Shown: positions 15,384 to 64,000 of the stretch, one piece after another
Layout: every line of letters starts with the position of its first letter
Position numbering within the stretch: the stretch's first letter is position 1
Assembly (NCBI GenBank): GCA_964016885.1
Contig: OZ024742.1
Span: 284,022,001-284,086,000 of the forward strand
From: Eledone cirrhosa
Taxonomy: Eukaryota
Direction: 5' to 3'
Length of the DNA stretch: 64,000 nt
Made by a program: the position numbers and the translations under genes
The notes under the pieces: generated by a model
What the model was told of the DNA's origin: nothing
The model's input: the letters and a program-made list of their open reading frames with translations, nothing else
Databases searched by the model: none

Positions 15384-15441
<58 letters not shown>

Positions 15442-16256: not shown

Positions 16257-16310
<54 letters not shown>

Positions 16311-19798: not shown

Positions 19799-19830
19799 GT
19801 AAGCTCTTCATTTTCATCTTTTAATTTATT

Positions 19831-23004: not shown

Positions 23005-23876
23005 AAAACCATGTTTATACCTTGTCTGTTGTGGAATGTTGTGAATGTGTGATATGTAATTCCTAATTTGTTTATTATGTGTGTGTGGTATGTTTGTTGT
23101 TGAGTGTGCTGGTTAGTTGTATTATATGTTGTCTTGTGTTGTTGGTAAGAAGTAGGTGTCTTGGAGACAGATTTCTATGTGGTTGATGAAGTTTAGGATA
23201 GTTGTGCACCTGAGAAGGATGTGAGTGTGATATCATCTGCATTGCGACACGCAATAATTCAAAAGACTCGACTTCCTACGGACATAGGCCAAAGTTAAGC
23301 ATATATACAGTATGCCCCAACCCACCCACCCCCATGAGGATAGGCCAAAGTAAATCATCCAGTGTAGCCCCCAGTCCACACTATAAAGTGGTCATTTAGG
23401 TGTCACAACAAAAAGCACCCAGCCCAAACTGTAAAGTAGTCATGTAGGTGTCATGTCAAAAAGCACCCAGTCCACACTGTAAAGTGATCGTGTAGGTGTC
23501 ATGTCAAAACGCACCCAGTCCACACTGTAAAGTGGTCAGGTAGGCATCACGACAAAAGGCACTCAGTACTCATTGTAAATGAGGTTGGCGTTAGGAAGGG
23601 CATCCAGCCATAGAAATCAAGCAAGAATTAGTTCTGTATGAGCAAAATATGGTCACTTGACCTAGCACTGCCCACAATAAAACAACTTGTCTAACCCATG
23701 CTAGCGTGGAATGGATGTAAAACAGTGAAGTTTTGTGAGGTGCAGGAAGAACGGGATTGAAAAAAGTAGGTAGAAGAATAAACCCTGTGACATTGTTTTC
23801 AATTAGCAATGAATTCTAGAGATATAGAATTTGAGTCATTCATTCAGTGCCAGTTTTACACATTAATTTTGTTTGT

Positions 23877-24047
23877 TTAACCCATTAGCATTTAAATTGG
23901 CCATAACCAGCCACTCATACTGACGTAAAGGTACTGTTCTCAAAATAAATAACATCAAAATCTCATAGATTCGATATGTAAGATAAAGCCTTTACCACAA
24001 AAATACAATAGTATATATATAGAGTAATGTAAATGCTAAAGGGTTAA
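23877..24047. mobile_element. piggyBac-type MITE (copy 3)
   Basis: TTAA|CCCATTAGCATTTA...TAAATGCTAAAGGG|TTAA. Confidence 0.75.
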
Positions 24048-26666
24048 TTATTTAATTGAAATACTGTTCATTTAAATATACTGTTATTTAAAATTTCTTT
24101 CTATTTCTAGCATTTTAAATCTGATATAAAATGATTACAAGAATGAGAAGACAATTTTCCTTAAGAAATCAATAAAAATAAAACATTGGATATCAAATCA
24201 AAAATGATTGAAGAGTTGTACAGCTAAAGTAAAACAGAGAAATCATTTGATAAAAGAGAGCAATGGAAATATTGTTACATTGTTACATGTTTTCACAATA
24301 ATTAATCTACAGCTTTGATCTACATGTTTCTCTATTGTAATAAAGGATTTAGTGAGTCTATCATCATCATCATCATCACCGTTTTACGTCCGTTCTTCCA
24401 CGCTAGCATGGGTTAGACGGGTTGTCCTGTTGTGGGCAGTGTCTGGTCGGCTGACCATGCCTTGCTCATACAGGAACTGATCTGGCTTGATTTCTACAGC
24501 TGGATGCCCTTCCTAACACCAACCTCATTTACAGTGAGTGCTGGGTGCTTTTTCGTGGCGCCTACACGTCCACTTTACAGTGGGCTGGGTGCTTTTTTGC
24601 CGTGGCACCTCCACGACCACCTTGCGGTGGGGGGAGTGGGGGCATATTGTTTATATGCTTCAGCATATATATCAAGTAACAGTGTTCCACAGACACGTGT
24701 ACTCCTAATGTAATTCTCAGGAAAATTCAGTGTGACACAATGTATGATAAGAGCGAAACTATTTCAAAGCAGTTTCTGTCAACCCAATTCCATTGACAAG
24801 GCTTGAGGGTCAACACTAGAAAATATATATAGTAAGACACTAGCTCAAGATCAGGAAGTTAGATTGAATCCAGAATCTTATGACAGAAATTATCAACTTA
24901 ATTAAATTGATCTACTCTTGTAATTCATTCATCTCACAAATATAGAACTCTTTTTACAGATCTACATATGGATAACTGTGTATACATGTGTCTATATTAA
25001 TATATATATATATAATTTATATACACCTGACAAAGGACTGCAAGTGTTGGTGTTATGCTATGCTGGTGAAGACCCAACCAATAGCATACAATGAGACCTG
25101 ACTTATCTCTGTGAACCCCCTTTCACCAGCACTCTCTAGCATTTTTCCACCATCACTATTATCTCGATCCCTACACCTCTCCTTCCCAGCACTGGCAGGG
25201 TGCCATCCCCACCCTGCGCTAGACACTCCACCACCACATCCTCTACTCCCCAATATGCTATCAAAAGACACTTTCCCCTTCCCCACTCACACCACACTTA
25301 TTTCCCTTCTATTGCTCCTACCCCCGCCCCCACAGAGCAGAAAGGGTTATTCTGTTGGGATAAGGACCAGAGAGGAAGGGCACTCCACTATAGAAACTAT
25401 GCTTTAAAAGGGTTGAGAGTACTGTTCAGTTGCGTCACAGCACGACTTCTCTAATGTTGGTGATCTGCACGATAACTGCACCCAGTATACACTGTAATGT
25501 GGTTGGTGATAGGAAGGGCATCCAGCCATAGAAAGCTTGCCAAAGAAAGAGTTAAGAAGACCATTCAGTTGTGTCGAACATGACAACCTTTCTTGTGCAT
25601 TCAGTAGAATGAGACGATACAGACACCCTAGTTCCTCTGCCTTTCTCTTACATTTACATTGCACATCCAACGAAGCATCACTGCTTCATTTCTCTCCAGT
25701 TTATGCATGTCTTCTGTAGTCACTGCCCATGCAGCATCACACTTCACACACAGGCATCAGACAGTCGTCCTTTTGTACATAGGGAGGAACTTTTAATTGT
25801 CAACAGTGGGAGTAGCTCTCTAAACTTCTTCCATCCTATCCTAACTATTATATATATATATAGGCACATACATATCATCGTCATTTAATGTCTGCTTTAC
25901 CTAAGTTTACATATCTTTAAATAATATTTATACTGTATTTTCTTTTAAGTATGGAGTACTGTGTTGAATAATAGTCTTACTAGTCTCAATTAGTAACATC
26001 TTATTCATCTATCGTAGGCCCCCTTCGGTCACAAAGGACCATGGTTTTGTACCCAGAAAATTCCTCTCCAAGACACAAGCCTGGGTAAGGTGTGTTTGTG
26101 GAAGACCAGCAGTCGCTAATGCATGCCAGTCTCCCCTCTCCACACGACATGTTGTCCAAGGGAAAAGCAATGGCTGATACAGCTTCGCACCAGAGACATT
26201 GCAGCTCATTTCTACAGCTGAATGAACTGGATCAATGTGAATGCACATGGTTTTGTAGTTAGAGCATTGAGCTCACAATTGTATGGTTGTGAGTTTGAAT
26301 CCCAGACCGGGTGGTGTGTAGTGTTCTTGAACAAAACACTTTACTCATATTGGAGAGATAGAGAGAAGAGATGAAATAAATGAGCAAAAATAAAATAATA
26401 TATAAATACAACAAAAACATCAATATATATGGTGATTACCTTCATTGTTGAAGGCTAAAATATACAAGTCTATAAAGAAAGTGTTATAAAACTAGGTATG
26501 CACACTTCTTATATAAATACAGTTTTAAACAGCCTAGATTGTATTTCAGTAAAAGTATTATTTAAATGTTGATAGAACCTAACAAGTAGGGTTGTTTTTT
26601 TCTGTTACACATAGAAAGACCACACTACTGTGTAGTGAGCAGTGCTGCTATTTCAAATTCTTCCAT

Positions 26667-26746
26667 CTAATATTCTGGACTTTGTGGTTTAGGTTGACCA
26701 AGTAAGTAGGCATCAAAGGGCAAGGCTTTGCCAGAACTGATGGAAT
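26667..26746 (-). CDS. MCPH1: MCPH1 last coding exon ([26 protein letters not shown])
   Basis: Strong polypyrimidine tract plus ccag acceptor, phase 1, DSI...YLL as at the end of BRCT3, TAG at 26669-26667. Confidence 0.85.
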
Positions 26747-29700
26747 CTGGAAACAGGAAAATAGAAAAAAAAAGAGGCACAATAATACTATTTATATACA
26801 TACAAGCATTTTAAGGCCATATTGTTGCTATGGCTCACACGTGTGTAGGTTTAGACAGCCACATATGAGATTGTGTCTCATAGGATATTTAAAAAATAGC
26901 AACTCCAATCCTATCGTACTCAACATGGGCTCCTTTTTGAGGCAATGTTTTCTGGCGCCAACATTTCACTTCTTATGACATGCGGAGATATGGCATATCT
27001 ATTTTAAAACAGATACATATAGAAGTTTCTGAACGGCTGCTGGAGCCCTTAAATTCTAGCATGCCATAACACCATGTAACAAAAAATTTTTTTTATCTGT
27101 TCCTGGCTTGTAATCACTTTTTTTGTGTTGCTTAGGTCCCAAATAAATAAAAAAAAGTGCTATTAAACAATTAAAAGTTTGGGTTTGTAAAAATTCTAAG
27201 CTATTCACTAGAATTATTTGTATGCTGGATTTTACGTTGTATGTAAGTTTAATTTGCTTATGTTAAATGATTTTTTTAGATATGTTTCAGGTTAAATTAA
27301 AATTATAAAATAAAAAGTAATACCTAAAGAAAATTATAAAAGTGCAATAAAGTATAAAATTGTTAAAAAGTGGATTAAAGAGATTTTTTGATTTGGATTT
27401 TCGCACCCTCTGGGCCCCTCACTACTGTTGTGAGCACTGAAAGAAGACGCTGGAAGGGTGGCTGCGAGGTGAGAAAAGGTCCCTGAAATTTTCCAACCCA
27501 CGGGTCTGGTTAGAGCCAACAGACCACGCCACAAACTGCTTTTTTTGCATGGTGGATGTTAGCAAGCGGCGGAAAGGAAAGAATGCTGCTGATGTAGATT
27601 ATCCAGATCTTCCATCATCAATTGCTCCAATTCCTCACTGCTCCAAATATCCCGTGCCAATGCCACCTGCTCCAGATGAAGTCCAAGACAAGTATTCTGA
27701 TGAAGAGGAGGAGATGGATGCTGAGGACTTGGATTACCTGCCTGAGGTACCAGAAAAGGTTCCTCACTTCCCAAACCAAAAAGAAGTCAATGACTTGGTC
27801 AGGGATATGGGTCTGAGCAAGTCCAATGCAGAGCTATTCGTCTCCAGAATGAAGTAGTGGAACTTGGTCAATGAGGAAGTGCAGGTGACAAGTCAGAGAA
27901 GTCGTCACAAACCTTTCTTAGGCTTTTACACTCTTAGGGATGGCTTCTGCCATGACATGCCAGGACTGTTTGACGTTATTGGGGTGCTGTTTGTGCCCAA
28001 GGAGTGGCGGCAATTTATATACAGCTCCACCACAAGTTTGAAGGCTGTCCTCCTCCACAATGGAAACAACTTCCCGACACTGTCCCTAACTCATTCAGTC
28101 TGCCTGAAGGAAGATTACTACAGTGTGAAAGTCCTCTTGGAAGCTCTGCAATACAACCAGTACAATTGGGAAATCATTGGAGACTTCAAGATGGTGGTTT
28201 TCCTGCTTGGACTCCAAGGAGGCTTTATTAAATTCCAATGCTTCCTCTGCCTTTGGGACAGCAGAGCCACCTCTGACCACTACAAAAGAAAGAACTGGGA
28301 GCAGCGAACAGAATTTGTAGTTGGGACCCGGAACGTCATGTGGGAGCCACTGGTTGATCCCAGGATTGTGCTCATGCCACCACTGCACATTAAGTTGGGG
28401 TTGATGAAGCAGTTTGTGAAGGCTCTCAACCAAGAATCAGCCGCTTTTAAGTACCTTCTTAAGTTCTTCCCCAAGTTATCTGAGGCCAAAATCAAAGGTG
28501 GAATTTTTGTTGGACTTCAGATAAAGAAGGTGTTGGAGTCTACCGAGTTCTCCAATAAGCTCAATACGATTGAGAGAACAGCATGGAACTGTTTCAAGGC
28601 AGTTGTTAAGGGCTTCCTGGGCAACTACAGAGCTGAAAACTACCAGCAACTGGAGCAGGATCTGATAAAGGCTTTTGGCACCATGGTATGCAGGATGTCG
28701 CTTAAACTCCATATGCTGGACGCTCACCTAGAAAAATTCAAGGACAATATGGGCACCTACTCAGAAGAACAAGGTGAACGATTCCACCAAGATGTGAAAG
28801 AGATAGAGCGGAGGTTCCATGGCCACTACAATAAAAAAAATAGGGACTATATCTGGGGGCTAGTGCGGGAATGTGACCTGGACTACAACCGCAAATCCAG
28901 GAAATCCAGTCATTTCTGACGTGTATAAGTTGCTTTATAAGTGTTATTTGTTTTTACTTGTTTGCTTTTGATAAGCTTGTGTAATAAAATAAATATATAC
29001 TCTGTTGATTTAATTATATGAACTGATAAATTTTTTTTAAATGTGTTTTTTCTTGAAAAATATGAAAATTTCGAAATATCAAACCCAAACTTCTGATTAA
29101 ATAATAGTGTTTTTTTTATAATAATGGGATATAACAAACCAGGAAATGACACTTAGAACCGGGGAACAAACAATGTTACACGGTGAATCAGGCAACTGCC
29201 AGTCACACAACTGCCACAATTAGACAACCTTAGCCGGTCCCAAGTCTGGTTGAGAAAGGAGGAGGGTTGGGGCGTGGGGTTAGCAGCCCTACCCCCATAA
29301 AAACTTTTCACCGCTACAGAAACGACAAGAAAAAACCATTTTGATACCCAGCGGCGGAAAAGAGAAGACATCATCCCTGGATGCATCTATGATGGGGCCA
29401 AGTCAAAGCCGAAAGGAGGCCCGACTGCGGATAAGTCCTATCTTCAACGGCAAATCAAACACAAGAGTAGGCACCTGATGGAGAAGGTGAGAGAATATCT
29501 CCTTGACATCATGGCCATCAGCGAGACGAGGTGGACAGGACGGAGATGACTCGACAACGGAGGCATGACTATTCTCTACTCCGTTGGGATGGAGGCCAGT
29601 GAGTGAACGAATTATTACTGCCAGATTGAACACAAGGTTAGCCAAGGTGACCATATTGCAAGTCTACACCCCGACTGAAGCTGCCTTAGATGGAAGACCA

Positions 29701-32700
29701 CAAAAAACATGGCGGAGCACATTCAGGGAGGACCTGCGGGAGATGGGAATTACCTGGAGAGGTGCTACAAGGGCCGCCAGTGACAGGATCAAGTGGAGGA
29801 AGCTCGTCGCCCAATGTTCCACAAGGGACTGGAGGAACTAAGACTAAGAATGGTCAAGCAACTGCCATAGTACAGCCCAATCAGAATTTGGTGTCATCTG
29901 CTTACATGTACCATGTGCTACTATCACTTTGGGATTTGGTTTTTATATTACAACAAACAGACCAAACCATTTCAATATAACAGAAAACAGAATCAGCCAA
30001 CTTCAATGGTACAAAGAAGAAGAAAAAGAAGGGATTGAAATAAAATATATAAAACTTACCAAATATCCAGAGTGGAACAACACTAATCATAGATGGATGA
30101 TATTCCTCCCCAATGTAGATACTAGCATTACATATTGAATTCTTCACCTGTGTAATACAGCAAACAGAAAGGCTGTTCATTTTAACATTTTATATGTATT
30201 ATACACACGTTACATGTATTATACACACATGCTACATGTATTATACACACATGCTACATGTATTATACACACAAGCTACATGTATTATACACACAAGCTA
30301 CATGTATTATACACACATACTATATATATTATACACACAAGCTACATGTATTATACACACATCCTATATTATACACACATGCTACATGTATTATACACAC
30401 ATCCTATATTATACACACATGCTACATGTATTATACACACATGCTACATGTATTATACACACATGCTATATATATTATACGCACAAGCTACATATATTAT
30501 ACACACATGCTACATGTATTATACACACATGCTACATGTATTAGACACACAAGCTACATATATTATACACACGTGCTACATGTATTATACACACAGGCTA
30601 CATGTATTATACACACATCCTATATATATTATACACACAGGCAACACATTATATACACAAGCTACATATATTATACACACAGGCAACATGTATTATATAC
30701 ACATGGACTATACAAACATGCTACATGTTTTATACACATGGGTGACATACATACAGGCTACATATCATCACTTTTATGTTCATTTATCTATGCTCACATG
30801 TGTCCTATCTTCTCTCCTACTCACTAGCACTCTAGTTTTGGTTAAGTTTACACTCAGCCCTTTTGATTCCAAATTCTGTTTCCATAGTCAGTACTTATTC
30901 CCTAGTTCTTAGCAATAAGGACCAGGTCATATGCATAGAGAAGTTCCCGTGGACAGCCAGTCTTTAAGTCTCTGTTGTGGCCTGGAGAACTATGATGAAC
31001 AGCAGTGGGCTGAGAACCAATCCCTGATGAAATCCTACTTGCATCTTGAATTCCTCACTAAACCCACTTCCTACTCTCACATTAATGAACAGCTCCTCTG
31101 TACATGGCTTGTACTGCTCTCACAAGCCATCCTTCTACACCTAATTTTCTTAAGGACCACCAGATAACAGAATGTCAAAGGCTTTTTCTAGATCAACAAA
31201 AGCTAGATATAGCAGCTTATTCTTGGCGAGGAACTTCTCTTGTAGTTAGCTCACTAAGAGAGCATAAAACCAAATTGCATTTTGTCTAATTTGACTCTTT
31301 CCTTAATTAGCTGTGCTAGAACTCCTGTCACTTTTATACCTTGGTCCATCAGTATTATTATTCTGTTGTTGCTCTTTTCTAGAGCAACACCTTTACCCTT
31401 GTAGCAATTTATTATTGTACTGCTGCACCAGTCATTGGGTATGACTCTACGGGTTACTAGTTCAGTTCCTACTTCTGCTGCTTTTAGCATCTCAGCAACT
31501 ATCTCTGATAGTCCGACTGCTTTACTATTCTTCATCTTGATTGTTTCTTTGACCCTATAACTGTCAATTTCAATAGTTGGTCGCTCTGTTGGGTGTAGTC
31601 TCTCTTCATCTTATTTATTCTTTACATTCATCAGCCCCTCACAGTAACATTTCCGGGCCTCTTTCTTTTGAGCATCAGTGGTACTAAGTGCACTAGTTTT
31701 ATTTCTAACACTCTTTTCCCCAACAACATCCCAATTCACACAGATACACTGCTTTACATATTGTTATAACTGAGGCCTAACTATTGTTGAAATATATCCT
31801 TTTCCCATTTGAATAAAATGATAATTCTGGGAAGTTCTAAAGTTGTTTGCTAAACAGATATTACTCTGTTTGTTGACACACATTACCTGATTTGAAAACC
31901 AGAATAAATGATTTGAGAAAAATAAAACAATACAAATTAGAGAAGTCTGCTCTTATCTGTTAGAACACGAAAAGTGTGAAACAACAGAATGTTCACTTTT
32001 CGTGTTCTAACATATATGCCTAGCTTCTTTAAAAATTTTTCGGGGATAGCCGTGGTGGTGGTGATCGTATGTCATTGGCTAATTTTCAACCAATTAGAGT
32101 ACCTCTCTCTATATCTCTTCCACTGTTACTTACGCCTGTTTCTCTCTATCTGTTCCGTCTCTGTATATATCTCTTACTCTTTCGCTTTGCACTCCTCCCC
32201 TTCAATACCATCTCTCCCTCTCTCTATATATTTGTTACTCTATCGCTGCACGCTCCTCTCCTTCAATATATCAATTACACACGCTTTACACTCCTTTATC
32301 CCCAGTGCCCCTATATATACACCCCCCCCCTCTCCCGCATCTATATTTTAACGTACCGTTGCACCGTGAATATATGTGTCTATATATATATATATACATA
32401 TATATTGTATATACACATTCATGTATGTGTATACACACTCATGTATGTATATACACTGGTTTTATGTGTGTATTGTAAATTTGTACTGTTAAAACACGAA
32501 ACTAACATTCGATTGACACTTTGATTACCTGTACAGGCAATAGTTATTAGAATGCTGTTGAAGTGTGTATATATTTTTGGGGGACATCCTGTATATACAC
32601 ACATTATATATAATACAATAAACAGATAAATACACACATATATATATGAGCTTATTTAATTATAAATATTGTGAATTTTTAACTCAGTTCAATTATATAT

Positions 32701-47500: not shown

Positions 47501-50500
47501 GAGCTCCAACCAGGCAGAGCGTGACCTGGTGGTGGAACAGCACGGTAGATAGGGCCATTAGAGACAAAAGACTAGCATGGAATGCTTGGAAAAATGGTGG
47601 GAGTAGAGAAGGATACACAGCCGCTAAGAGAGAAGCTAGACGTCAGGTGTACTTAGCACTGAGAGTAGGAGGTTTGCCAATTTTCTGCGACGGGAATATC
47701 GGAGACGTGCAGTGTTCCGGCATTGCAAGGCAGGATGTTGTTGGAGATAAGTGTGTCTGGAATGATGCCGGTGTACTTAGTGTCACGAATGATAAAAAAA
47801 AAAGGAGGCCTGGAAATGTCATTATGTGAAACCGATGACTGTGGAGAACGAATGGGAGAGAGAAATTACCCCCAGTAGATCTGACAGAGGGACTAGCTAT
47901 TGAGATTGACGAATATAGGGTCCAAGAGGCAATTAAGGAAATGAAAAATGGTAAGGCCGCTGGACCGTCGGGGATAGTTGCTGAGATGCTGAGGGCATCA
48001 GGGAATGTAGGCACTAAACTGGTTGCACGCATCATCAATCAGGCTATATATGGTGGTGTCACACCCAAAGACTGGTGCAGCAGTATTCTCATAAATTGTT
48101 ACAATGGTAAAGGGGATGCTCTGGAGACGAGCAATTATAGGGGCATAAAACTGATGGATCAGGTTATGAAAGTGGCAGAAAGGATATTAGCGCAACTAAT
48201 TAGAGAAAGGGTCAAACTAGATGAGATGCAGTTTGGTTTTGTGCCTGGGAAAGTACAACAGATGTCCTCTTCTTAGTGAGACAACTACAAGAGAGGTTCA
48301 TAGAGAAGAATAAGCCACTATAGCTTTTGTTGACCTAGAGAAGGCCTTTGATAGGGTACCCTGATCTGTCATCTGGTGGTCCCTAAAGAAACTAGGTGTT
48401 GAGGAATGGCTTGTGAGGACAGTGCAAGCTTTGTACAGAGGTGCTGTCAGTAAAGTCAGGGTAGGAATGGAGTTTAATGAGGAATTCCAGATACAAGTAG
48501 GAATACATCAGGGTTCGGTCCTCAGCCCGCTTTTGTTCATTATAGTCCTCCAAGCCCATGGGAACTTCTCTATGCTGACGATCTGGTTCTTATAGCAGAA
48601 TCAGTAGAGGAGCTAGAGAATAAATTCTGGTTATGGAAACAGCAGTTGGAATTAAGAGGACTGAGAGTGAACCCAGCTAAGACAAAAGTGTTGATGAGTA
48701 GAAAGAGGACAAAACTCTGATTCCGTCAGGGAAATGGCCATGTTCGATATGCAGAAAAGGAACTGGCATAAATTCTATAAAATGTACACAATGCAGATCC
48801 TGGGTACACAAGAGATGTAGTGGGATAGCAGGCAAACTAACAGGTAGGGAAAAATACGTATGCAGTAGATGTACAGGGAATTTTGACAGTAGAAGTCGCA
48901 TTGAGAGACACATTTTTCAAATGCAGGTAGGTTCTATAGAAGTGGCTGTTAGCTTCCAGTACCTAGGTGATCAGATTAGCATGGGGGGGGGGGGGGGGGC
49001 ATAGTATCTGGAGCTGCTTCCTCTGCTGACAAAGAAGGGTTTCTCCCTGTGTATGAAAGGCCGGTTATATAATATCTGTGTGAGGTGTGCGATGCTGCAT
49101 GGTAGTGAGAAATGGGCAGCAACTGCAGAGGATATGCGACAACTGGAGAGAAATGAAGCAAGCATGCTCCGTTGGATGTGCAATGTCAATGTGCGTGAGC
49201 AAGAAGCTGTGTTTAAGAGGGATAAGTTGTAGTGTGTGGGAGAGAAGATTGTGATGGTATGGACATGTGACACGCATGGAGGATGACCACTGGGTAAAGA
49301 AGTGCCAAGAAATGCCAGTAGAAGGAAGATGCAATAGAGGAAGAACACGAAAAACATCGGCAGAGGTGGTAAGAGCAGACCTCAGATGGCTGAAGCTCAC
49401 GGAGATGATGAGGGACTGTGACAAGTGGAGAGATGCTGTGCTGAATAGGACCCGTCCCACCCTTGCAAGCAGAGAAAAGTGGATGTATGATGATGATGAT
49501 GATGAACATGATACAAGTTTACAAAATAAATACATAAATATGGTTGTACTCCGAGATCATTTTGTACACAAGGATGCAATATATTCACTTGTTTTTAAGT
49601 TTCAGAAACATAGGTCATATTATACTAAAGCCATATACACAAAGAAATATGCTAATAAGAGCTTTAGATTCATAATTGTAAATGTATCACCATTGTTCAA
49701 CTGCAGTATTAGACAGCCACAATCCTTCTCCACCTATTCCAGCATTCATAATCAGTTGTGGAGGAGAGAGATTAAGGAATGCATGGAATAAATAATGAAG
49801 ACTGATCTATGAAGACTGAACACCTTATAAAGCAGATGACAGAAGAGCGTGAAGATTAGTGACATGCTATGCAGGAAAACATCTACCTACTGGTACAAGC
49901 ATAGTGATGTGGTCATTAAATAAAGGTGAGAGAGATGGAAGCTGGACATATTGGGCCACTTGCCCACTCTTTGTTTGACATTTTTCCTTTATCACTTGTA
50001 TCCAAATTTGAAGACATACCTAATCCTAAATCTGCCCTTTTAGATAAATATTACATTTCTATTGTTACTCACCTTCCCACCACAATGCTGCAACAATTCT
50101 ACCAGGTCCTTTTTTGGTGGGGCCTTGACAGTAGAGACATAGATATTTCCACACTGACCAAACAACTTAGGGCTAGAGTTGAGCTGCTTCTGTTCACGAT
50201 ATATCTGCAGATAATATAGAAAGAAATACTAGATGTAATATAAACCACAATACACATGCATACACACTACATTCATAATTGTTACAATGTTACAAATATA
50301 TATATTAGTGTTACCAACACTATAGAAGTTATTGTGCTTTTGACACACTGAAGAGTCCTCTCTTAGTAGCTTCAGATTACCTGTGCCACAGGATAGCTTT
50401 CAACCATCTCAAAATTCTTCTCGTCCAACCAACAGCCAGCTGTCATCGATGCTGAGACCTGTAATGACAAAGAGAGAAATATTAGCAAACACACTTTGTA

Positions 50501-53500: not shown

Positions 53501-56500
53501 TATCCAAACCATGCCACTATAGAAGGCAGATGTATGATGATGATGATATACATACACACAAATATATTTATGCAATGTGTCACTCTTTCTCTCACACACA
53601 ACACAATTCTAAAAAATACAAATACACAAAAAAGTAAAGTCTAACAAGTAAAAGCTAGAATGAAACAATAAGATTATTGATAGAGAATGAAAAGCTAACT
53701 TACCCATTCTTTACTGACAAGCCAACAGCCCTGAGATAGAGCAAGCAAGACATTGAGTGTACGTCTAGGCATACCACAAATCACATGTGTTGTCGTAATC
53801 TTCACACAATCACTGATTACACATTCACCCAAAGTTTTAGCAACAGATTTCACCAATTCTTGATCTCTAGAAATATACCAAATCACAGACATCTGAGTTT
53901 TCAAACAGAAACAACAGGTAAATATTTTTACAAATATGAAGATTTATAATTATTGTTAGTGTTTAAGCCTTAAACTGTTGATTCCCACGTATATTTTACA
54001 CAGCTATAGTTGCTGTGCCGGGTTTCTTATCAGTAAAATGACTATTTTTTTAAACAAACATTTATTAACAACACATATCTGAATGATTGACAAACGTCAC
54101 ATCAATAAGCTAGTAATCCCATCTAGCTTTGATGTTATGAACTGTTGGAAAAGCGTTCATAACTTTCAAGTTATGAACTGTCGGAAAAGAGTTCAAACAT
54201 GTTGGTTAAGGAACACTAGGATTACATTCACTCCAGTACTTGACTTGTACTTATTTTATGAACACCAAAAGAACGAACGTCAAAATTGACTTCAGCCGGA
54301 TTTGAACTTTGTGGTAAATTGGCAGATTCATTTGAGTTTCTGACAAAATGCTTTGTGGCATTTGTTACAGCTATCTACGTTTTGAGTTGAAACCCCACAA
54401 AGGCCAACTTTACCCTTCATTCTTCCAAGGTCAATAAAATAAAGTACCCATCAAATACTGGTGTCGATTTAATCAACATTCCCTCCTCACAAATTCCTGA
54501 CCATGTGCCAAAATTAATAACAAGGAGCTGGAACTGATACCAGACATTTTGTCTGATACGCTAAGAATTATGCCACTATCATTAAAATATCCAAGGAACC
54601 TCCTATGAGATCCAACCTCATAGAAGGCAAGTTAAAGCTATATAGGTCTAAACTAACAACAAATAGAGTGTTGACAGGACTGGGGATTCTATCATTAAAA
54701 TACCCAAGAAACCTTGTAGGAGACCAGCTAAAGCTATATCTGTGTAAGCTGTAACAACAACTGAATAGCAATAGAGAATATCTAAATACTTACAAGGTAG
54801 ACATACTGGTCATCACCAAATATATTTTGATAGGCTGTAGGTGCCGTGAAACTGGAGACATATTACTTGAACTGCTTCGTTTCCTCCGCTTGAATCTGGG
54901 TGTAACAGTTTGGTCATCTGAGGTGAAAGTTTGTGACAGACTCAAGAAAGAGGAAGATGTCTGTTGTGATCTTACAACTTGTTTCTCTTTCTCAACTTCC
55001 TTCGGTTTCTGTCTCATCTCCCAAGCTTTACTCATTTGAGAGTTGTCAACACTTGCTCTGCTGTGACAAGTCAACAGGTCAGGCTGGCTGCTTGAGTTCA
55101 GTGACTCTGAGTCACCATTTACCAACACTTCCTCCTGTTTTACAGTGAAACTAGTTATGTTAGTACCAGCTCCATCGGTTATATGGCATGGAATGTTAGC
55201 GCTTGATAAACTGGTCAGTACAGGTGTGTCATGGTCTTCCTCGCAAATACCAAGGACATGCATTGTCTCTCTTTTAGCAAATTTCTGTTTATAAATCTTT
55301 GTTGGGTGTGTGTACTCAGCGAAACGTAAGTCACAGTGACTCAATATTAATGGACTAGTTGGATTCTTAACAGGACTTTTACTGAAAATATTACCATTCT
55401 TGAAGACTGCATGTCCCACATCAACAATGCCACACTCCTCAGGAACATCACTAACATCTGTACAGAAATTTTTTGCAGATTTAACATCCACTGTTGAAGA
55501 AATAATTGACTTGTTTATTGACAACTTCATTGGTGATGGTGAATCCAGACAAGATTTTTCATTGTTCATATTTTGATCTTGTTGCAGCAGTTTATTCACT
55601 GCTGCTTTAGGGGAGATCTGTTTCATGTCATTGAAAATCTCATGTTGACTTGTTGGAGAAATTAGATTAGGCATCTCGGTGGTGATACTAGAAACTTGGT
55701 TATTAATAGAGTTTGAAGCCGGGCAGTCCTGCTGATTGGATGCATCAAAACTAAATGGTTTACTACTCTCGATCTTCTGAATTTCCTTTTCTTCAGAAGG
55801 GCTGCTGTTCTCTACATCAGAACCATCACCTACAAAGAATAAAAGACATTTTTTTGTATTTTTTTTGTATTGACTTCAAGAGGATTTGAAACAGAGTAGA
55901 GAGTTGGAACAAATACCATAAAGGATTTAATATGATGCTCTACTGACTCTGCCAGTTCTCCTACTTTGAAGGAAGAGCAGAGCTAATTTTAAGGGACAAT
56001 GTTTTACTTACTGAAGAGTAGTTTCTGGAAGGAACGATTTGAAACAGGTGTGTTATCTGAAAGAAATCATAATGTCAAAACTTTTGAGTTACAACACAGT
56101 CAACACAAAGGATTGGCTGAAGACATACACACATATATATATATACATTTGTGTGTGTGTGTGTGTATATATGTCATCATCATGGTTTTTACATGTTTTT
56201 CTGTGATGGCATGGGAAGGATGGACAAGATATCTTTTTAGGCAAAATTCTAGGAAAGCATGGAATAAGTTGATGTAAAGATGATGATAATGATGAAGAAT
56301 ATATATAATAATTGTTTCTACTTTAGGCACAAGGCCAGCAATTACCCAGTGCATTACTGGTACTTTATTTTATCAACCCCGTAAGGGTGAAAAGTAAAGT
56401 CAACCTCGGCGGGATTTGAACTCAGATCGTAAAGGGATGTAACTATGCTGGAAAGCATGGCGTTCGACCCTCTACCGATACTGCCAATCCATAATAATAA

Positions 56501-59500
56501 TAATAAGTGGAAACAAAATATCATTTTAGCATCTTGTACATATTTTATTCACACTCCATTGAGTGTTTAAACTGGTGAGCCATCAGTAACTGAATGTTAC
56601 ACACCAAGCAACTATATCATCATCACCGTTTTACGTCCATTCTTCCACGCTAGCATGGGTTAGATGGGTTGTCCTGTTGTGGGCAATAGCCGGTCGGCGG
56701 ACCATGTCTTGCGCATACAGGAACTGATTTTGGCTTGATTTCTACAGTTGGATGCCCTTCCTAACACCAACCTCATTTACAGTGAGTGCTGGGTGCTTTT
56801 TTTTCCGTGGCGCCTACACGTCCACTTTACAGTGTGGGCTGGGTGCTTTTTTGCCATGGCACCTCCACGACCACTTTGTAGTGGGAGGGGATGGGGGCAT
56901 ATTGTCTATATGCCTCAGCTTCGGCTTGTACCCGTGGGGGGGTCTTCTGTATTACTGCGTGACGCCAGGTGTAATTGGGTAAGGTCGGCTTTTATCACCT
57001 CATCCCAGGTCTTCTTGGGTCTCCCCACTCCGCAACTTCCATCGACTTCTAGTGCTTCCTGCACACAGCATTTGATTCCTCTTATGCTCAGTCTCTCTCT
57101 CAATTCGTTTATGCTTTGCCATTCGCGTATATTACTACTATTACACATCCATCGGAGCATGCAGGCTTCGTTTCTTTCTAATCTACGCAAGTCTTCTACA
57201 AACAGCACCCAGGTCTCACTACCATGTAACATTGCTGTTCGTATACACGCATCATACAGTCTGCTCTCCATTTTGAGGGAAAAGCCTTTTGCAGCTAGCA
57301 GTGGCTCCCTGAACTTCTATCTCGCTCTTACCCTAGTTATTGTACTTTCCGAACAACCACCTCCGCTACTAATTCGGTCACCTAGGTAGCAGAAGCTGTC
57401 TACTGTTTTTACAGAGCCCTCCCAGAGTTTGGTGGTGCTTGTTTCCTGTGGCTGTTTGCTGCTTGCTGTCCCAGGACAGCTGCTACATGTGAAGCCTACG
57501 TTCTTAGTTAAGCTTCCTGAGATCCCACTACATCTCTTGTGTACCCATTGTTTGCATTTGGGGCAGAGGATGGAGTTCCTACCTACACCTTTCCTACATA
57601 CTGAGCAAGGCCATTTCCCTGGGGGGATCTGGGTTCTGTTTTCTTGTCTACTTACAAGGACCTTAGTCTTTGTCAGGTTGACTTTGAGACCCTTTCTTTC
57701 TAGTCCCTGCTTCCATGTTTGGAATTTCTTCTCTAGTTCTACCATAGATTCTGCTATAAGTGCGAGGTCATCTACATACAGGAGTTCCCATGGGCATCCG
57801 GTCTTAAACTCCTCCGTTATTGCCTGCAAAACTATGATGAACAGGGGAGGGCTAAGAACAGATCCCTGGTGGACACCGACCTGTATGCTAAATTCCTCAC
57901 TATAGTCATTGCTAATCCTAACTTTGCTGACTGCTCCCCTATACATGGCTTGTACAGCTTTCACAAGCCATTCATCTACTCCTAGTTTTCTAAGAGCACA
58001 CCAGATTATAGCATGGGGGAACTCTGTCAAAAGCTTTCTCCAGAACAACGAATGCCAGGTAGAGCCACTTACTTTTAGCTAGGTACTTTTCCTGTAGCTG
58101 CCTCACAAGGAAGAGGGCATCAGTGGTGCCTTTTCCTGGCACAAACCCAAATTGCATCTCATCTAGTTTCACCCAGTCCCTAATCAACTGTACTATAACT
58201 CTTTCTCTTACTTTCATGACCTGGTCCATCAGCTTTATACCTCTATAGTTTCCTCTATCTAGTGCATCACCTTTACCCTTGTAGCAGTTGACAATGATGC
58301 TGCTGCACCAATCCTTTGGTATGACACCTTCTAGTATTACCTGGTTAACAATACATGTGGTTATGGTGTGACCTACCGACCCAGATGCCTTCAGCATCTC
58401 GGCAGCTATATCCGATGGACCGGTAAAAAAAAAAATCAGCACCAAAGAACAGGGTAAAAAAAGGGTAAAGACCCCTTAGGTCACAAATGACTATGGATTT
58501 TGCACCTAAAAAGTTTCCTTTCCAAGGCACAAGTCCAGGCAAGGTTGTTTGTGGAAGACAAGCGGCCACCCATGCATACCAGTTTCCCCTTTCCATGCCA
58601 CGGTGTTGTCCAAAGGAGAGACAAAGTCCAATACAGCTTGATACCAGTGATGTCACAATTCATTTCTACAGTTGAGTGAACTGGAGCAACGTGATATAAA
58701 GTGTTTTGCTCAAGAACACACACAAAGCCCAGTCCTGCAATCAAACTCACAACCTCACCCAACCCTACAACCACTAAGCCATGAGCCTTCAATAATAGTA
58801 TATTAGGATAACAATTAAAGAGAATGAATATAAATGCCTTAACGTTTCAGGTCCTGGTCCTTCATTGAAAAAGAAAACACAGAAAGAGGATTTTTTTTTA
58901 GAGAAAGATAGATGGAAAAAAAAAGAGAAAGAAAAAGATGTGTGGTTATATGACAAGCTGTAAACAATCGAACTAAAACCCCATTGTGTCATACATATAA
59001 AAATATAAAATATAATATATACATTAGCTATATGTGTACATGTATATCCAGAAAGCTATGAAGAAGAAAAGATACATACCATAGCCTCTGCTGTATTCAA
59101 GGAGTTTCTCCTTCATACTGGGGGGTGTAGTTAAACGGGGTACATGGCATGTGAACTGAAAAAAAAAAAAAGTATTGCTTTCAAGTTAATGACCATCGTT
59201 TTTCCTCAGTTTATCATGGTGACATAATCATGTCTTACTCATACGTTCTATTTCTTCTGAATTTAAATTCTACTATGGAAGAAAAAGGATTATAATTAAA
59301 TGCCTCTTACTCTGCTGAATCTGCCATTTCACTGCTTCAGCAAGGGTGAGAAAAGTTACCAAACAACATGGTTATAGTTGGAGAGTTTTAAGGCCTCTGT
59401 ATGTTTGTGTAACCATGGATCTGCACTTGTAAAGTTCCTTTGCAAGGTGCAGGTTTAAGCAAGGTTTCTTTTTGTGGAAGACTGGCAGTCACCCATGGAT

Positions 59501-62500
59501 ACAAGCTTCCCTCCTTCATTCCACTGATGTTCTTCCACAGGAAAAGCAAGTAGCAATACAACTTGGCACCAATGATTTCCCAAAGAAACTCAGAACACAA
59601 AAAACTGAAAAAAATATAAGGCATCCCATATGACACTATCAATTCCACAAACTGAACTGGTGTTTTCTCAACCCTGAAAGAATGAAAGATAAAGTTGACT
59701 GTGACAGGATTTGAATTACTCTTGTGTCCTTTTAACTCTTTAGAAAGTAGTCCAACCCATTGTCTTTAAAAAAAAAACTGTTTAAAAAAATGCAGGTGTG
59801 AAATAAAAAGAAATGGTCAAAGGTATTTATGCTTACATCAGAGACAGGCGTGTAGAAAACATCAATGGGACTAGAATTTTGTTGGTCAGACGTTTGGTGT
59901 AAATGTTTCTTCCTTCGACGACGACAACGCTGGGAGCTGTCTTCAAAATCCTCATTCAAATTCTTTGGTTGCATTGATCGAAATCTCTGCAATATATACA
60001 TATATATATATGTATGTATGTGTATGTATGTATGTATCTCATGGTTGGATCGTTGGCGACTAAACTGGCAACCCCACCAAGGTTTCTTGGTGAGGAGGGT
60101 GACTTTGGACATCCTGCAGGACTAAAAACAAAACCTGTCAAAGGGCAAAGGAGCTCTTAAGAGTCAATGGCCATCCAAAATCACCGGGAGAGATGACCCC
60201 TTAGCCTTTGTTAAGGCAGAATTCTAGAAGGAAAACTCTGATATAACACCTGCAACCCTGATGGTATCCAATGATGTTGACTTGTTCTTCTTTTTGGTAA
60301 ATATCATCTTGGTTAAGAGAGTGGGACTGGCTTTGTGCAGTGCCTTTGCTCACTATAAAAGCTTCACGGCACAGGCATTGCTTTACATCTGGAGATCTCT
60401 CTGCACTTGTCATCACATGGTACCATGGGCCCAGCACTATTTGTCAATAATTGTCACAAGTGTAGTGTTTGTACCAGAGTTTTCAAGTCGTTGGCTGGAC
60501 TAAAAAGTCACACTCGTTCAGCCCATCGGTAGGGGTTCTCCTACATGGATGTAAAACTAGTGGCCGTACTCGAAAACGAGTTGGCAGCCACCATGTATGT
60601 ATGTATGTATGTGTGTGTGCGTGTGTGTGCACACCTCTCTTCCAATTTCTGACATGCAGTGTTAATTGAAATGAAAACAAGAGTTCATCATTATCATTTA
60701 ACATCAATTTTCCATATTTGCATGGGTTAGACAAGTTGTCAGGTTATGATACTTGACCAGTTAGATGATCACATCTTACTCATAAGTTCCATTTAGGGCT
60801 TAGTTTCTACATTTGGATCCACATCATAAGACTAACCACATTATAGCACATATTTTATCATAGCACAAACAGCGACTTTTCAGAGTGGACTGGGTGTGTT
60901 TTATTGAGGCACCAACACGACCACTTTACAGAATGAACTGGGTATGTTTTATTGAGGCACCAACATGACCACTTTACAGAGTGGACTGGTTGTATTTTAT
61001 TGAGTCACCATCACGATCACTTTACAGAGTGGACTGGGTGTATTTTGTGGCAGCCAAAATATGCAAAGTTAGTTTACCTGGGCTTGTTTCTTGGGAAATA
61101 TACTAATGACCTCTGCTTCAGTGACACTACGAGGAGTATTAACAGTAAAGGCTCCTTCATCTACATGTTGTAGACTTCTTTTGCAGCTGACACAAAGAAA
61201 CAATATGTGAACATGTGAAAGCAAGTCAAACATTTACAAGCTGAATTTTATAAAGGTTTTCCAATATACTAATATAGACAACTGCACTGTACATATCCCC
61301 ACATAAAAATTCATCATGCATACTTATAATCATGCAAACATCAGTAAAGTATCATAGACATGTACATCCATGTATACACATATACACACTTAACATATAC
61401 ACAAGTAATCCCACCAACAACAGTAAACAAACACACATACATACAGCTGCACTATACATATGTACTCACATAAATACACATCATATACACAAGAACAAAT
61501 AGTGATGGATCCTCCATTAGTTTTAATAATGAAAACTCAGTAGCACAATAAACAGAATATCTGACTTATGAATGAATGTGTAAGTGGTATCCCACAGACA
61601 CATGTACCTATAACATTATTCTTATGCACAATCAGCATGACACACTATGACAAGACTGGACCATTGAATTACAGGTACAATCCACCTAAAGGACTTTGTT
61701 TCCATGTACTCAATTTCACTCACAAGGCCCACGTCAACCCAAAGCTATGGTAAAGACTCTTGCCCAAGATGCTATGCAATAGGATTGAACCCAGAACTTC
61801 ATGATTGAGAGACAAAATTCTGAACCACTCAGTCGTGTCTGTATCCACTTGTTCAATCAATGAAGCAACCTGCTCATAAAATTACTGTGTAAATGTACCC
61901 TTAACATAATTCTCAACCATTTAAACCGGTCAGAATTCTCTCACCTCTTTCTGTTCAAACTAGCCATAACTAACCACTCATACTGATGTTAAGGTATTAT
62001 TCTCAAAATAAATAATATCAAAATCTCATCAATTCGATATTATGTGAGATATGTGAGATAAAGCCTTTACCACAAAATACAATAGTATATCATCATTATC
62101 ATCATCACCGTTTTACGTCCGTTCTTCCACGCTAGCATGGGTTAGGCGGGTTGTCCTGTTGTGGGCAGTGCCAAGTCGGGTGACCTTGTCTTGCTCATAC
62201 AGAAACTGATTTGGCTTGATTTCTACAGCTGGATGCCCTTCCTAACACCAACCTCATTTACAGTGGGGGCTGGGGGCTTTTTTGTCGTGACACCTCCACG
62301 ACCACTTTGCAGTGGGAGGGGATGGGGCATATTGTCTATATGCTTCAGCATCGGCTTGTTCCCGTGTGAAGTCGGATCTTCTGTATTAGAATAATGTAAA
62401 TGCTAAAGGGTTAACATAATTCTCAAGGAGATTCATTGTGACAAAGCTGGCCCTTTAAAATACAGGGACACTCCTTCCAACAGGCTTCCAAAAAGTTTCT

Positions 62501-63015
62501 ACCTCCCTAATTTCACTCACAAAACATGGTTCAACCTAAAACTATTGCAGAAACACTTTGATTGAATGCAATGCAAAATTCTGAACCACTCAGTCATACC
62601 TGCGCACATTCGATGGACCTCTATCAGTTTCGATGACAGAACAGTCTGCTCATGAAGTTGATGTGTAAGTTGTTAGCATGTGTATCCTTAACATAATTCT
62701 TTGGGTGATTCAGTGTGACAGAGCGTGACATGACTGGCCCTATAAATTACAGGTACAGTCCATCCACTCAGTCATGCCTGTATCCACTCACCTATCTCAG
62801 AGTAACTCACCTGTCCACCCACAAAACAGACACCAGAGGAATACCAAGCTTCTTGGCACGATTCCATGTCCGTTTGGTTCCATCTTTGAATACAACATGG
62901 GTGACATTTGTATTCAGTTTGAATGAGATGTGAGCACCAAGCTTCTCTAATTCTACAGCAATCCCTTGGCTGCGATTCTCACATTTGGACCTCACCTCCA
63001 CATAAGCCACCACTT
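26667..63015 (-). CDS. MCPH1: Microcephalin (BRIT1), spliced; 10 coding exons found, first exon not located
   Basis: Exons 63015-62811, 61186-61078, 59986-59837, 59155-59080, 55829-54794, 53866-53704, 50458-50381, 50204-50073, 30147-30060 and 26746-26667 are GT-AG with consistent phases (~705 aa). N-BRCT VVAYVEV...VTHVVFKDG...LVSVLWV, then RSMQPK, a Ser-rich middle, and tandem C-terminal BRCTs ([25 protein letters not shown]; [10 protein letters not shown]...WIFDSI). Confidence 0.93.
27070..29185 (+). mobile_element. Chapaev3-type (CMC superfamily) DNA transposon with both TIRs
   Basis: Termini CACCATGTAACA (27070) and TGTTACACGGTG (29185) match 11/12 as an inverted repeat, with CAC...GTG ends. 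TAA precedes the left end; the right flank AAT is not an exact TSD. Confidence 0.8.
27411..28919 (+). pseudogene. Chapaev3-like transposase, disrupted
   Basis: One frame reads WAPHYCCEH*...[17 protein letters not shown]...SRMK*WNL...[17 protein letters not shown]...[12 protein letters not shown]...[11 protein letters not shown]. In-frame stops at 27438 and 27855; the N-terminus is missing. Confidence 0.85.
29190..29848 (+). mobile_element. Internally deleted (bipartite) RTE-derived element
   Basis: RTE-like 5' UTR and EN fragment ([14 protein letters not shown]...ILQVYTPT) are fused directly to the ORF C-terminus (GRPQKTWR...[15 protein letters not shown]) and a CTAAGA-repeat tail. Confidence 0.7.
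30060..30147 (-). CDS. MCPH1: MCPH1 exon, second half of BRCT3
   Basis: [29 protein letters not shown]; acacag acceptor, G|gtaagt donor. Confidence 0.88.
30194..30760. repeat. ~20-22 bp minisatellite (ACATGTATTATACACACATGCT)
   Basis: About 25 diverging tandem copies; these explain the repetitive ORFs 30194-30912. Confidence 0.95.
31000..31750 (-). mobile_element. Decayed RTE LINE fragment
   Basis: ORF 31254-31535 ([15 protein letters not shown]...[17 protein letters not shown]) is the same family as 42400-42750. Confidence 0.8.
34480..35436. repeat. Near-perfect 213-bp inverted repeat with ~530-bp spacer
   Basis: 34480-34692 is the reverse complement of 35224-35436 with only about 2 mismatches seen. 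Confidence 0.92.
35098..35185. mobile_element. 88-bp hAT-like MITE
   Basis: TIR CAGGGCTGCGGAG...CTCCGCAGCTCTG; 8-bp flanks GTATTATA and TTATTATA (7/8 match). Confidence 0.7.
35650..36595. repeat. Compound minisatellite GTATGAGATTT(G)(TA)n
   Basis: More than 30 tandem units with variable TA length. Confidence 0.95.
36776..37200 (-). mobile_element. RTE LINE 3' end (3' UTR and tail)
   Basis: Reverse-complement match to 43970-44500 including the (CAT)n tail. Confidence 0.8.
37243..37348. repeat. Nested GC-rich palindrome
   Basis: Outer arms ATAGGAACGAGTAGGACCCCGAC / GTCGGGGTCCTACTCGTTCCTAT, with an inner CGACGGCTAATTCTG / CAGAATTAGCCGTCG pair. Confidence 0.85.
37553..38482 (+). repeat. 140-bp tandem repeat (~6.6 copies) within an RTE 3' UTR
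   Basis: AACACGGTAA recurs at 37561, 37701, 37841, 37981, 38121, 38261 and 38401. Units are near-identical, and the RTE tail follows to ~38588. Confidence 0.95.
38827..39018. repeat. ~190-bp near-perfect palindrome
   Basis: Arms of ~90 bp (TATCAAAAGGAAAATCCGAAAGC...GAAGCCAT / ATGGCTTC...CGGATTTTCATTTTGATA), loop of <=8 nt, few mismatches. Confidence 0.92.
40515..44498 (+). mobile_element. Near full-length RTE-clade LINE (APE endonuclease, RT with PHD insertion), inactivated by stops and frameshifts
   Basis: EN: [36 protein letters not shown]: [31 protein letters not shown], CxxC...CxxCxxWVHxxC...CxxC, FRYLG. (GAT)n tail. 5' boundary approximate. Confidence 0.92.
44526..45927 (-). mobile_element. 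5'-truncated RTE copy, tail-to-tail with the 40515-44498 copy
   Basis: ORF 44904-45758 is highly similar to the + copy (PHD, thumb, C-terminus). Truncated at SPLLFII (~45927). Confidence 0.92.
46010..49503 (+). mobile_element. Second near full-length, decayed RTE LINE (related subfamily, also with PHD)
   Basis: EN ([15 protein letters not shown]), RT ([17 protein letters not shown]), KWPCSICRK...[12 protein letters not shown], (GAT)n tail; many frameshifts. Confidence 0.88.
50073..50204 (-). CDS. MCPH1: MCPH1 exon, first half of BRCT3
   Basis: IYREQK...[11 protein letters not shown]...[16 protein letters not shown]; 132 bp, gtgagt donor. Confidence 0.9.
50381..50458 (-). CDS. MCPH1: MCPH1 exon ([26 protein letters not shown])
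   Basis: 78 bp; G.W..E..FE motif at the end of BRCT2. Confidence 0.9.
50495..50960 (+). mobile_element. Decayed RTE 3' fragment
   Basis: [16 protein letters not shown]...[13 protein letters not shown] in degenerate frames. Confidence 0.75.
51520..53440 (+). mobile_element. Decayed RTE LINE of a different family (EN to pre-RT)
   Basis: [35 protein letters not shown]; [10 protein letters not shown]; [10 protein letters not shown]; [14 protein letters not shown]. Confidence 0.82.
53704..53866 (-). CDS. MCPH1: MCPH1 exon, BRCT2
   Basis: [13 protein letters not shown]...[30 protein letters not shown], 163 bp. Confidence 0.93.
54794..55829 (-). CDS. MCPH1: MCPH1 large central exon (Ser-rich linker to the start of BRCT2)
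   Basis: 1036-bp open exon containing ORF 54790-55674 and ending YLVMTSMST; phase 1 to 2. Confidence 0.88.
56617..58423 (-). mobile_element. 5'-truncated RTE LINE (RT, PHD, 3' UTR)
   Basis: ORFs 57990-58445, 57317-58048 and 56915-57271; (CAT)n tail at ~56617. Confidence 0.9.
59080..59155 (-). CDS. MCPH1: MCPH1 exon ([25 protein letters not shown])
   Basis: poly-T plus cag acceptor, G|gtatgt donor, phase 0 to 1. Confidence 0.8.
59837..59986 (-). CDS. MCPH1: MCPH1 exon (RFRSMQPK...PVSD)
   Basis: Conserved MQPK motif, basic NLS-like RRRRKK, 150 bp. Confidence 0.88.
60036..60612 (+). mobile_element. Short RTE-derived non-autonomous element in a (TATG)n tract
   Basis: A 5'-UTR-like segment is joined to a C-terminal C2H2-like remnant ([19 protein letters not shown], ~60460-60516); (TATG)n lies on both sides. 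Confidence 0.55.
61078..61186 (-). CDS. MCPH1: MCPH1 exon ([14 protein letters not shown]...KKQAQ)
   Basis: End of BRCT1 (C...HVDE..F); phase 2 to 0. Confidence 0.88.
61915..62414. mobile_element. piggyBac-type MITE (copy 4), interrupted by an RTE 3' end at ~62090-62390
   Basis: Same body as copy 2 with the right TIR plus TTAA intact. The inserted segment matches the 3' end of the 56617-58423 RTE. Confidence 0.7.
62811..63015 (-). CDS. MCPH1: MCPH1 exon, BRCT1
   Basis: [16 protein letters not shown]...LVSVLWVD; tttatag acceptor, gtgagt donor. Confidence 0.93.
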
Positions 63016-64000
63016 CTATAAAAAAGAACAGCAGAAAAATGGTAAAAATAATGTGTGTGTGTGTGTACATGTACCACATATACTGCCATTCATAGACACC
63101 TAACTCTTGATGAAGCCATAGGAGCACTGTCTTGACATTTTAAACCTGGTTGAGGCCACCCTTCCCGAGGTCTGCAGATTTCTTCCAAAAAGAGAGAAAT
63201 CGAGAAAAAAAATCATCACCACTGTTTACCACCTAGTTTTCATGCTTGCAGGCGTTAGACAGCTGTTTCATGTTGAGGCCAGACTGGTCAAGCGACTAGG
63301 TCCTGCTCATATGCTTTTTTGGCTTGGTTTCTAAGGTTGGATGCCCTTCCTAAGACCAACCACTTTGTAACATATACTGTGAGCATGGTTTCTATGACTT
63401 GATACTCTTCCTAACACCAACCACCTTACAGAGTGTACTGGGAGCATTTTATTGTGACTCTGACACTGCCACATTACAGGGTGGAGTGGGTGCTTTTGTA
63501 GTGGCACCAGCACTATTTCATAACAGCACTATGTTACTCAGTCAACATGGTCGTGCTGGGAGAGAGGATACCAGCCTTGCATTGCTGGAGGAGGAGGGTC
63601 ATGGTGGTGCCCAGTTTCCCTTGGTGACCTAAAAGCAGGCATGTGGTTAGAGGGGGGTGTCTGACAAGCTTTCTTAGATTGGAAAAATGTTGGGGGTATA
63701 AAAGTTTAGCAGGGAAGTTGAATCACTCAGGTTTTCTCCTAGATTTCCTTGCTAACATGGGTTGGGTGAAGAAATCAGTAGTATATTGGCAAATAAGGAC
63801 CTGAGATTTGTTCCATCTCTCTGCTTCTTTGGGTTTAGGTTGGAGAAGGGAATCAGGAGCATGCTGGCAGGGATTTCAGGAGTATACTGGTGGGCAGAGA
63901 TGTAGGAAAGCTAGTTCTACCTATGACAGAATATTGCCAGTTTTCTCGGTCCTGAGTGATCTCCTTTGCGAGGTTCAGCTGCATGAGATAGCCCTCATCA

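Follow-up and report, generated by a model that had tools for sequence, protein, structure and literature searches.

Human microcephalin (MCPH1) binds phosphorylated peptide ends through its C-terminal tandem BRCT (BRCT2-3), whose ligands reportedly include the Cdc27 tail. In the complex with gamma-H2AX, T653 and N696 bind the phosphate, and R693 and K814 bind the carboxylate (PMC8651625). The octopus MCPH1 encoded at the locus analyzed here shares the fold and the T653/R693/N696 pocket of the human complexes with gamma-H2AX (PDB 3SZM, 3SHV, 3U3Z) and with the Cdc27 tail (3T1N). Its last residues, S-P-E-Y-COOH, share with the gamma-H2AX ligand the pS-x-x-aromatic-COOH shape (the phosphoserine being predicted for the tail) and the +2 Glu of SQEY. 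The octopus protein differs from the human complexes in three respects: the ligand-like motif lies within MCPH1 itself; proline occupies the +1 position; and the K814 equivalent is leucine.

A C-terminal S-P-x-aromatic sequence with a free carboxylate is also found in Abraxas, whose pS406-P-T-F-COOH binds BRCA1 (PMC4747905), and both Abraxas and the MCPH1 tail often carry a second Ser/Thr just upstream. In contrast to Abraxas, the MCPH1 tail has mostly Glu at +2, which is disfavored by human BRCA1, and its carrier has a tandem BRCT of its own. The CDK-dependent BRCA1 ligands FANCJ (pS990) and CtIP (pS327) present S-P-x-F like the tail, but at internal sites, whereas the MCPH1 motif is always terminal; at -3 and -1, FANCJ carries Arg and Thr, as do most MCPH1 tails. 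Proteins that carry a phospho-ligand for their own reader include Src-type kinases, which are autoinhibited by their tail, and yeast Rad9, which oligomerizes through a BRCT-phosphosite contact. These involve different domains or sites, and in neither is a tandem BRCT known to bear a C-terminal mimic of a histone mark.

Gene structure and splice support

The window is the whole 64,000-nucleotide stretch of DNA that was analyzed, and MCPH1 is its minus-strand gene. A tblastn search with Octopus bimaculoides microcephalin as the query places 11 collinear exons from 63016 to 26667. Joined by their coordinates, and exclusive of the first coding exon, these give a single open frame of 719 residues that ends in SPEY. 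The upstream exon chain is based on homology and splice signals. The features of an MCPH1 orthologue are present (a BRCT at the N-terminus, a long disordered middle region and a tandem BRCT at the C-terminus), and MCPH1 is the closest protein. The BRCT2 exon best matches Octopus microcephalins, at 91% identity; identity in the middle exon is 51%, which sets this octopod apart from the two named species. The features are as follows.

26149..26666, minus strand: 3' untranslated region, at least this span (spliced X4 contig)
26667..26746, minus strand: last coding exon, with the BRCT3 end (helix 3 and YLL), linker and stop (tblastn and spliced contig)
26670..26681, minus strand: codons of the terminal motif S-P-E-Y, with Ser at 26681-26679 (translation; conservation)
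26682..26699, minus strand: six-residue linker G-Q-P-K-P-Q, with Lys at -3 (Arg in most orthologues)
30060..30147, minus strand: penultimate exon, covering the BRCT3 strands as far as the conserved Trp, with Leu (30072-30070) at the human K814 position
50073..50204, minus strand: exon with the inter-BRCT linker and BRCT3 start (tblastn)
50381..50458, minus strand: exon with the BRCT2 end (tblastn)
53704..53866, minus strand: exon with the BRCT2 core (PF00533, 26.4 bits, above cut-off)
53766-53752, minus strand: R-R-T-L-N in the BRCT2 core (human L692, R693, T694, L695, N696)
54794..55829, minus strand: large exon with the disordered middle and a V-M-T-S end (T653 equivalent at 54810-54808)
56012..63016, minus strand: five upstream exons, whole span (tblastn)
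62811-63016 and 61078-61186, minus strand: N-terminal BRCT exons
59837-59986, about 59080-59155 and 56012-56056, minus strand: exons with motifs after the N-terminal BRCT

Between 61078 and 59837 in the window, M-Q-P-K and T-P-P motifs follow the N-terminal BRCT. These are common to invertebrate MCPH1 and are possible further regulatory sites.

The last exon (26746-26667, minus strand) is directly preceded by a polypyrimidine tract and a TTCCAG acceptor, and its frame is set by the preceding exon. In run X4, a 3115-nt contig skips 3313 bases, from 30060 to 26746, which is exactly the last MCPH1 intron; the borders of the skipped segment are CT..AC on the plus strand, equivalent to GT..AG. The contig continues 518 bases beyond the stop, to 26149. 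This splice support is one contig from one sample (library kind not recorded), and runs X1-X3 are unspliced across the intron. Positions 15000-30059 showed no other exon that could complete BRCT3. A preliminary description of this DNA had proposed that the last exon runs past BRCT3 and stops at SPEY, and that human MCPH1 lacks such a tail. The frame carried over from the previous exon and the X4 contig, which joins the last exon, bear out the first point; the second agrees with the human chain, which ends in ENYLLSQ.

The last intron contains, at 27150-29117, a high-copy element with 38-nt imperfect inverted ends, whose read depth is thousands of times the unique level. It has broken reading frames, two of which were tested and gave no Pfam match; it is likely a DNA transposon. 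Fragments of LINE-type reverse transcriptase occupy 42737-43564 and other intron segments (e.g. 44907-48717), and in one such fragment PF00078 is followed by a PHD-like finger. Downstream of MCPH1, 3-1179 holds an integrase core fragment of an LTR retrotransposon (PF00665).

Conservation of the terminal motif

A first orthologue set was fetched with a profile of the N-terminal BRCT only, which cannot see the tail (of the 7 seeds, 5 were tail-bearing). It held 85 non-vertebrate entries; 20 without a recognizable BRCT3 end were dropped and 65 kept. C-terminal S-P-x-[F/Y/L]-COOH occurs in 45 of these 65 invertebrate orthologues with an intact BRCT3, the entries not being independent, and in none of the 132 vertebrate entries that have a BRCT3 end (152 were examined, with many isoforms among them). 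In this first set, the tail is present in: cephalopods (2/2), gastropods (11/11), bivalves (12/12) and a chiton (1/1) among molluscs; Lingula (1/1), annelids (1/2), amphioxus (3/3), anthozoans (2/2) and sponges (2/2, as SPEL) outside them; and 10 of 13 entries without a species name. It is absent there from nemerteans (0/1), arthropods (0/4), hemichordates (0/3) and echinoderms (0/8). Forty-eight entries have a long extension; 46 of these end in S-x-x-hydrophobic, and Pro is at +1 in 45 of the 46.

A second set came from an exhaustive search whose profile spanned the full length, tail included, and comprised 110 new proteins among the 150 matches listed. Ninety-seven of the 110 have a BRCT3 end; among the matches listed, 12 end in S-P-x-[FY] and 11 in another S-x-x-hydrophobic sequence. 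Twenty proteins of this set were looked up by name. MCPH1 ends in DSPEF in the unicellular holozoan Amoebidium parasiticum, in RDESPEF in Hydra and in ETSPAF in Tribolium, while the beetle Agrilus has RESQEF, a literal H2A.X-type end (one species, two of three isoforms). Also among the 20, eight other beetles end in S-x-x-V, three further tailed proteins have no species name, and the tail is absent in Stomoxys, Ixodes, Styela, Sanderia and one nameless entry. Nine beetle-type ends read basic-S-x-x-V-COOH, seven of them without Pro. This shifted form of the tail is found in weevils and in leaf, ladybird and pollen beetles (P0310, P0313, P0319, P0320, P0323, P0333, P0342, P0348). Two scorpion proteins (P0203, P0205) end in ERSPH/ECSPH and Lineus P0198 ends in NSKEW; these are possibly decayed tails.

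Some entries carry other names: the MCPH1 of Octopus sinensis (P0002) is listed as 'breast cancer type 1 susceptibility protein homolog', and two MCPH1-like proteins, P0153 of Mactra and P0193 of Desmophyllum, are listed as BARD1. A gene tree of 306 columns had poor resolution and served only for placing proteins without names. In the Atlas searches, the only clusters retrieved were those of MCPH1 and SLF1.

Among the compared proteins of both sets, none extends S-P-x-[FY] beyond +3 after BRCT3. Because of this, the ratio of 45/65 to 0/132, and the ends in Amoebidium, Hydra, Tribolium and Agrilus, the alignments identify the tail as an ancient, selected motif that has been lost in vertebrates and several other lineages. 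The preliminary description had raised the possibility of a conserved S-x-x-[YF]-stop in invertebrates; the motif in fact extends far beyond related species, to 45 of 65 entries and to Amoebidium, Hydra and Tribolium. Most simply, this distribution suggests that the tail arose before animals and was lost several times, once on the vertebrate line. Some tail absences may be gene-model errors.

One could instead regard the tail as neutral read-through or an annotation artefact, as losses are numerous and many of the sequences are gene models. The spliced X4 contig argues against an artefact. Moreover, the same four-residue pattern recurs in at least nine deep lineages behind a freely variable linker, and a background S-P-x-[FY] rate of 0.0004 (11 of 28,167 windows in the disordered middles of 52 orthologues) argues against a chance tail. 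Conservation largely refutes this explanation, which we consider very improbable.

Most of the 45 tails read R-E-[S/T/N]-S-P-E-F. The -3 residue is basic in 43/45 (Arg in 39/45, Lys in octopus); -2 is Glu in 28/45; and -1 is Ser/Thr in 31/45, with Ser in 23/45 giving S-S-P. Glu occupies +2 in 32/45, octopus included, with V, T, S or A in the other 13, and +3 is F in 26, Y in 16 and L in 3. The Pro/Gln linker (GQPKPQ) to which the preliminary description drew attention is present in octopus but is cephalopod-specific, and it is the shortest linker among the 45. The spacing from the conserved Trp to the tail Ser is 25-30 residues in all 45, a narrow range that hints at coupling of the tail to the domain. 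In the octopus tail, the Ser lies three residues ahead of the terminal aromatic, whose carboxylate is free. The tail does not offer an ATM/ATR S-Q site: S-P is found here and in 45/46, and S-Q only in Agrilus.

The tandem-BRCT pocket of MCPH1

Equivalents of T653, R693 and N696 are invariant in 65/65 entries, and position 692 is R/K in 65/65; in octopus, the pocket is basic at 692, where the +2 Glu would sit. The K814 equivalent is Leu in octopus and non-basic in 41/45 tailed entries, which removes one carboxylate contact; it is Gln in fishes and the coelacanth. Orthologues without a tail conserve the pocket just as well, so its conservation is not specific evidence on the tail. The proposal of the preliminary description that the tail mimics the ligand of its own BRCT stands in part: T653, R693 and N696 are kept and the +2 Glu and terminal position fit, but K814 is replaced by Leu.

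Two covariations were rejected. Covariation of K814 with the tail looked strong at first (basic in 18/20 tail-less versus 4/45 tailed entries) and was dropped because fishes are tail-less with Gln and because the tailed Amoebidium, Hydra, Agrilus and P0283 proteins are basic here; tail-less non-vertebrate-type entries of the second set are basic in 27 cases and not in 26. L695V with SPEL, in three sponge entries, was dropped as these form one clade and I/V also occurs in many tail-less entries of the second set.

A model of O. bimaculoides BRCT2-3 superimposes on human MCPH1 BRCT2-3 with Z 26.4 and an rmsd of 1.5 Å over 180 aligned residues. In an AlphaFold2 monomer, unphosphorylated, the tail block has a pLDDT of 80 and the last residue 55, values that Pro-rich ends can reach without docking. 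With a tail-rich alignment, SPEY has a mean pLDDT of 66, which Pro-rich ends can likewise score undocked. The modeled linker tracks the path of the BRCA1 C-terminal residues up to model residue 188, with no clear self-docked state.

Candidate readers of the tail

To judge by its residues, S-P-E-Y-COOH has the shape of a tandem-BRCT phospho-ligand. We place roughly even odds (about 0.5) on a proline-directed kinase turning the tail into a gamma-H2A.X decoy for the BRCT2-3 of MCPH1 itself, in trans or in cis. The consensus of DYRK kinases includes a basic -3 residue. The first step would be phosphorylation of the tail Ser by CDK1/2 or, given the basic -3, by a DYRK-type kinase. Next, the phosphate would sit on the T653/N696 equivalents and the terminal carboxylate on the R693 equivalent; the +3 aromatic would enter the pocket between the repeats, and the +2 Glu would lie near Arg at 692. 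The phospho-tail would plug BRCT2-3 of the same or a second MCPH1 molecule. The final outcome would be a cell-cycle-timed competition with gamma-H2A.X that releases MCPH1 from damaged chromatin, chains MCPH1 molecules together, or both. Binding in cis presumably needs a U-turn, which a six-residue cephalopod linker may not allow. Because this linker is the shortest of the set, the cis version is weakened, and in cephalopods trans binding seems somewhat more likely than cis.

Consistent with such a switch, human MCPH1 is phosphorylated CDK1-dependently in mitosis (PMC6338662). Human BRCT2-3 directs self-oligomerization without any tail (PMC8774270), so the tail is unnecessary for oligomerization as such. 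The motif is always terminal, which fits a reader that needs a free carboxylate, as MCPH1 does through R693 (PMC8651625). The H2A.X gene of the same genome (L041) ends in SQSQEY, in which SQEY has +2 Glu as in most tails. Taken together, the +2 Glu, strict terminal position, F/Y/L tolerance and Agrilus SQEF fit a gamma-H2A.X-type reader.

MDC1, PTIP/PAXIP1 or 53BP1 would satisfy the same motif logic; a gamma-H2A.X mimic for one of these would allow MCPH1 to recruit or sequester the reader without ATM signaling. MDC1 exons are present in the genome (L003/L069, with R-R-T-V-K-F in L069), as are exons that we take, from their motifs, to be PAXIP1-like. MDC1 prefers Tyr, whereas the tails favor Phe (26/45) over Tyr (16/45) at +3. 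Readers of this type use Arg for the terminal carboxylate (PMC8651625). However, a tethered MCPH1 pocket has a large concentration advantage over them, and they do not explain the narrow linker range, which makes this alternative rather unlikely. Among gamma-H2A.X-type readers the MCPH1 pocket is favored, by tethering, basic 692 and the 25-30 spacing.

Further observations speak against MCPH1 as its own reader: many lineages have dropped the tail yet retain the pocket; 13 of the 45 tails have V, T, S or A in place of Glu at +2; the beetle S-x-x-V ends have no aromatic anchor; and Pro at +1, found in 45/46 S-x-x-hydrophobic ends, is typical of BRCA1 ligands. The tail could instead be an Abraxas-like ligand that recruits BRCA1-BARD1 to MCPH1, forming a fourth, ancient BRCA1 complex lost in vertebrates. 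The preliminary description overlooked two points: pS-P-x-F/Y is also the canonical ligand of BRCA1, and the genome contains BRCA1. BRCA1 was not found by family and RING searches (30 of 73 RING matches inspected); its exon was one of 10 matches to a short-pattern search (L104, G000:C2:222046525). This BRCT exon keeps R1699, K1702 and F1704, and a BARD1 exon (L005) is also present. The pSPxF motif is the BRCA1 consensus and, C-terminal in Abraxas, forms a salt bridge to R1699 (PMC4747905); BRCA1 accepts Tyr at +3 (PMC12805184); and BRCA1-ligand sites are CDK targets (PMC3315748). The FANCJ peptide SRSTpSPTF has Arg at -3 (PMC6015222), as in 39/45 tails, and Lingula MCPH1 ends in RSTSPAF.

The +2 position argues the other way. 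In human BRCA1, +2 cannot be large or acidic, owing to E1698 (PMC4728184); octopus BRCA1 has Asp at 1698, and the tail has +2 Glu in octopus and in 32/45 overall, which speaks against BRCA1 as the reader. Further, BRCA1 binds internal motifs, so that it alone does not explain a tail that is never extended (Abraxas being a counter-example), and neither sponge SPEL nor the weevil and leaf-beetle S-x-x-V ends offer an aromatic anchor. On balance, BRCA1 is an unlikely reader.

Outside the BRCT family, candidate readers are Polo-box domains (S-pS-P), Pin1, receptors of C-end degrons and PDZ/TPR-type proteins that bind C-termini. In favor of such a reader, Ser at -1 in 23/45 tails gives S-S-P, nine beetle-type ends read basic-S-x-x-V-COOH, seven without Pro, and MCPH1 is a cell-cycle-degraded protein (PMC6338662). 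Against this, -1 is variable (T, P, N, A, Q, G, E, C), so that octopus and cnidarian tails depart from the Polo-box rule, and the spacing of exactly three residues from the Ser to the terminal aromatic is the two-anchor signature of a tandem BRCT. The 14-3-3, PDZ and Polo-box readings were weighed by their general consensus motifs, and we know of no non-BRCT candidate that needs a Ser at exactly this distance. A non-BRCT reader thus appears quite improbable.

Implications

The motif is real, ancient and apparently undescribed: the literature searched contains no description of a C-terminal motif in invertebrate MCPH1, though subscription papers and supplements may show the tail. MCPH1 has been studied almost only in vertebrates and flies. 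As both are without the tail, an ancestral control element would have been invisible so far.

If the tail binds the MCPH1 pocket, it would be a histone-mark mimic built into its own reader, and cell-cycle kinases would have a concrete means of silencing a reader of gamma-H2A.X. Binding to BRCA1 would instead mark an unrecorded BRCA1 complex. Tentatively, and with somewhat less confidence than in the decoy itself, MCPH1 may have carried a switchable copy of gamma-H2A.X since before animals, a pS-P-E-F/Y-COOH decoy, written by a cell-cycle kinase, that shuts or polymerizes the reader, and vertebrates may have deleted the switch. The human microcephaly protein would then be a derived, constitutively open form. 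The loss in vertebrates is a dated change to a gene of brain size. For genetics, the tail is available in Tribolium, Hydra, Nematostella and amphioxus.
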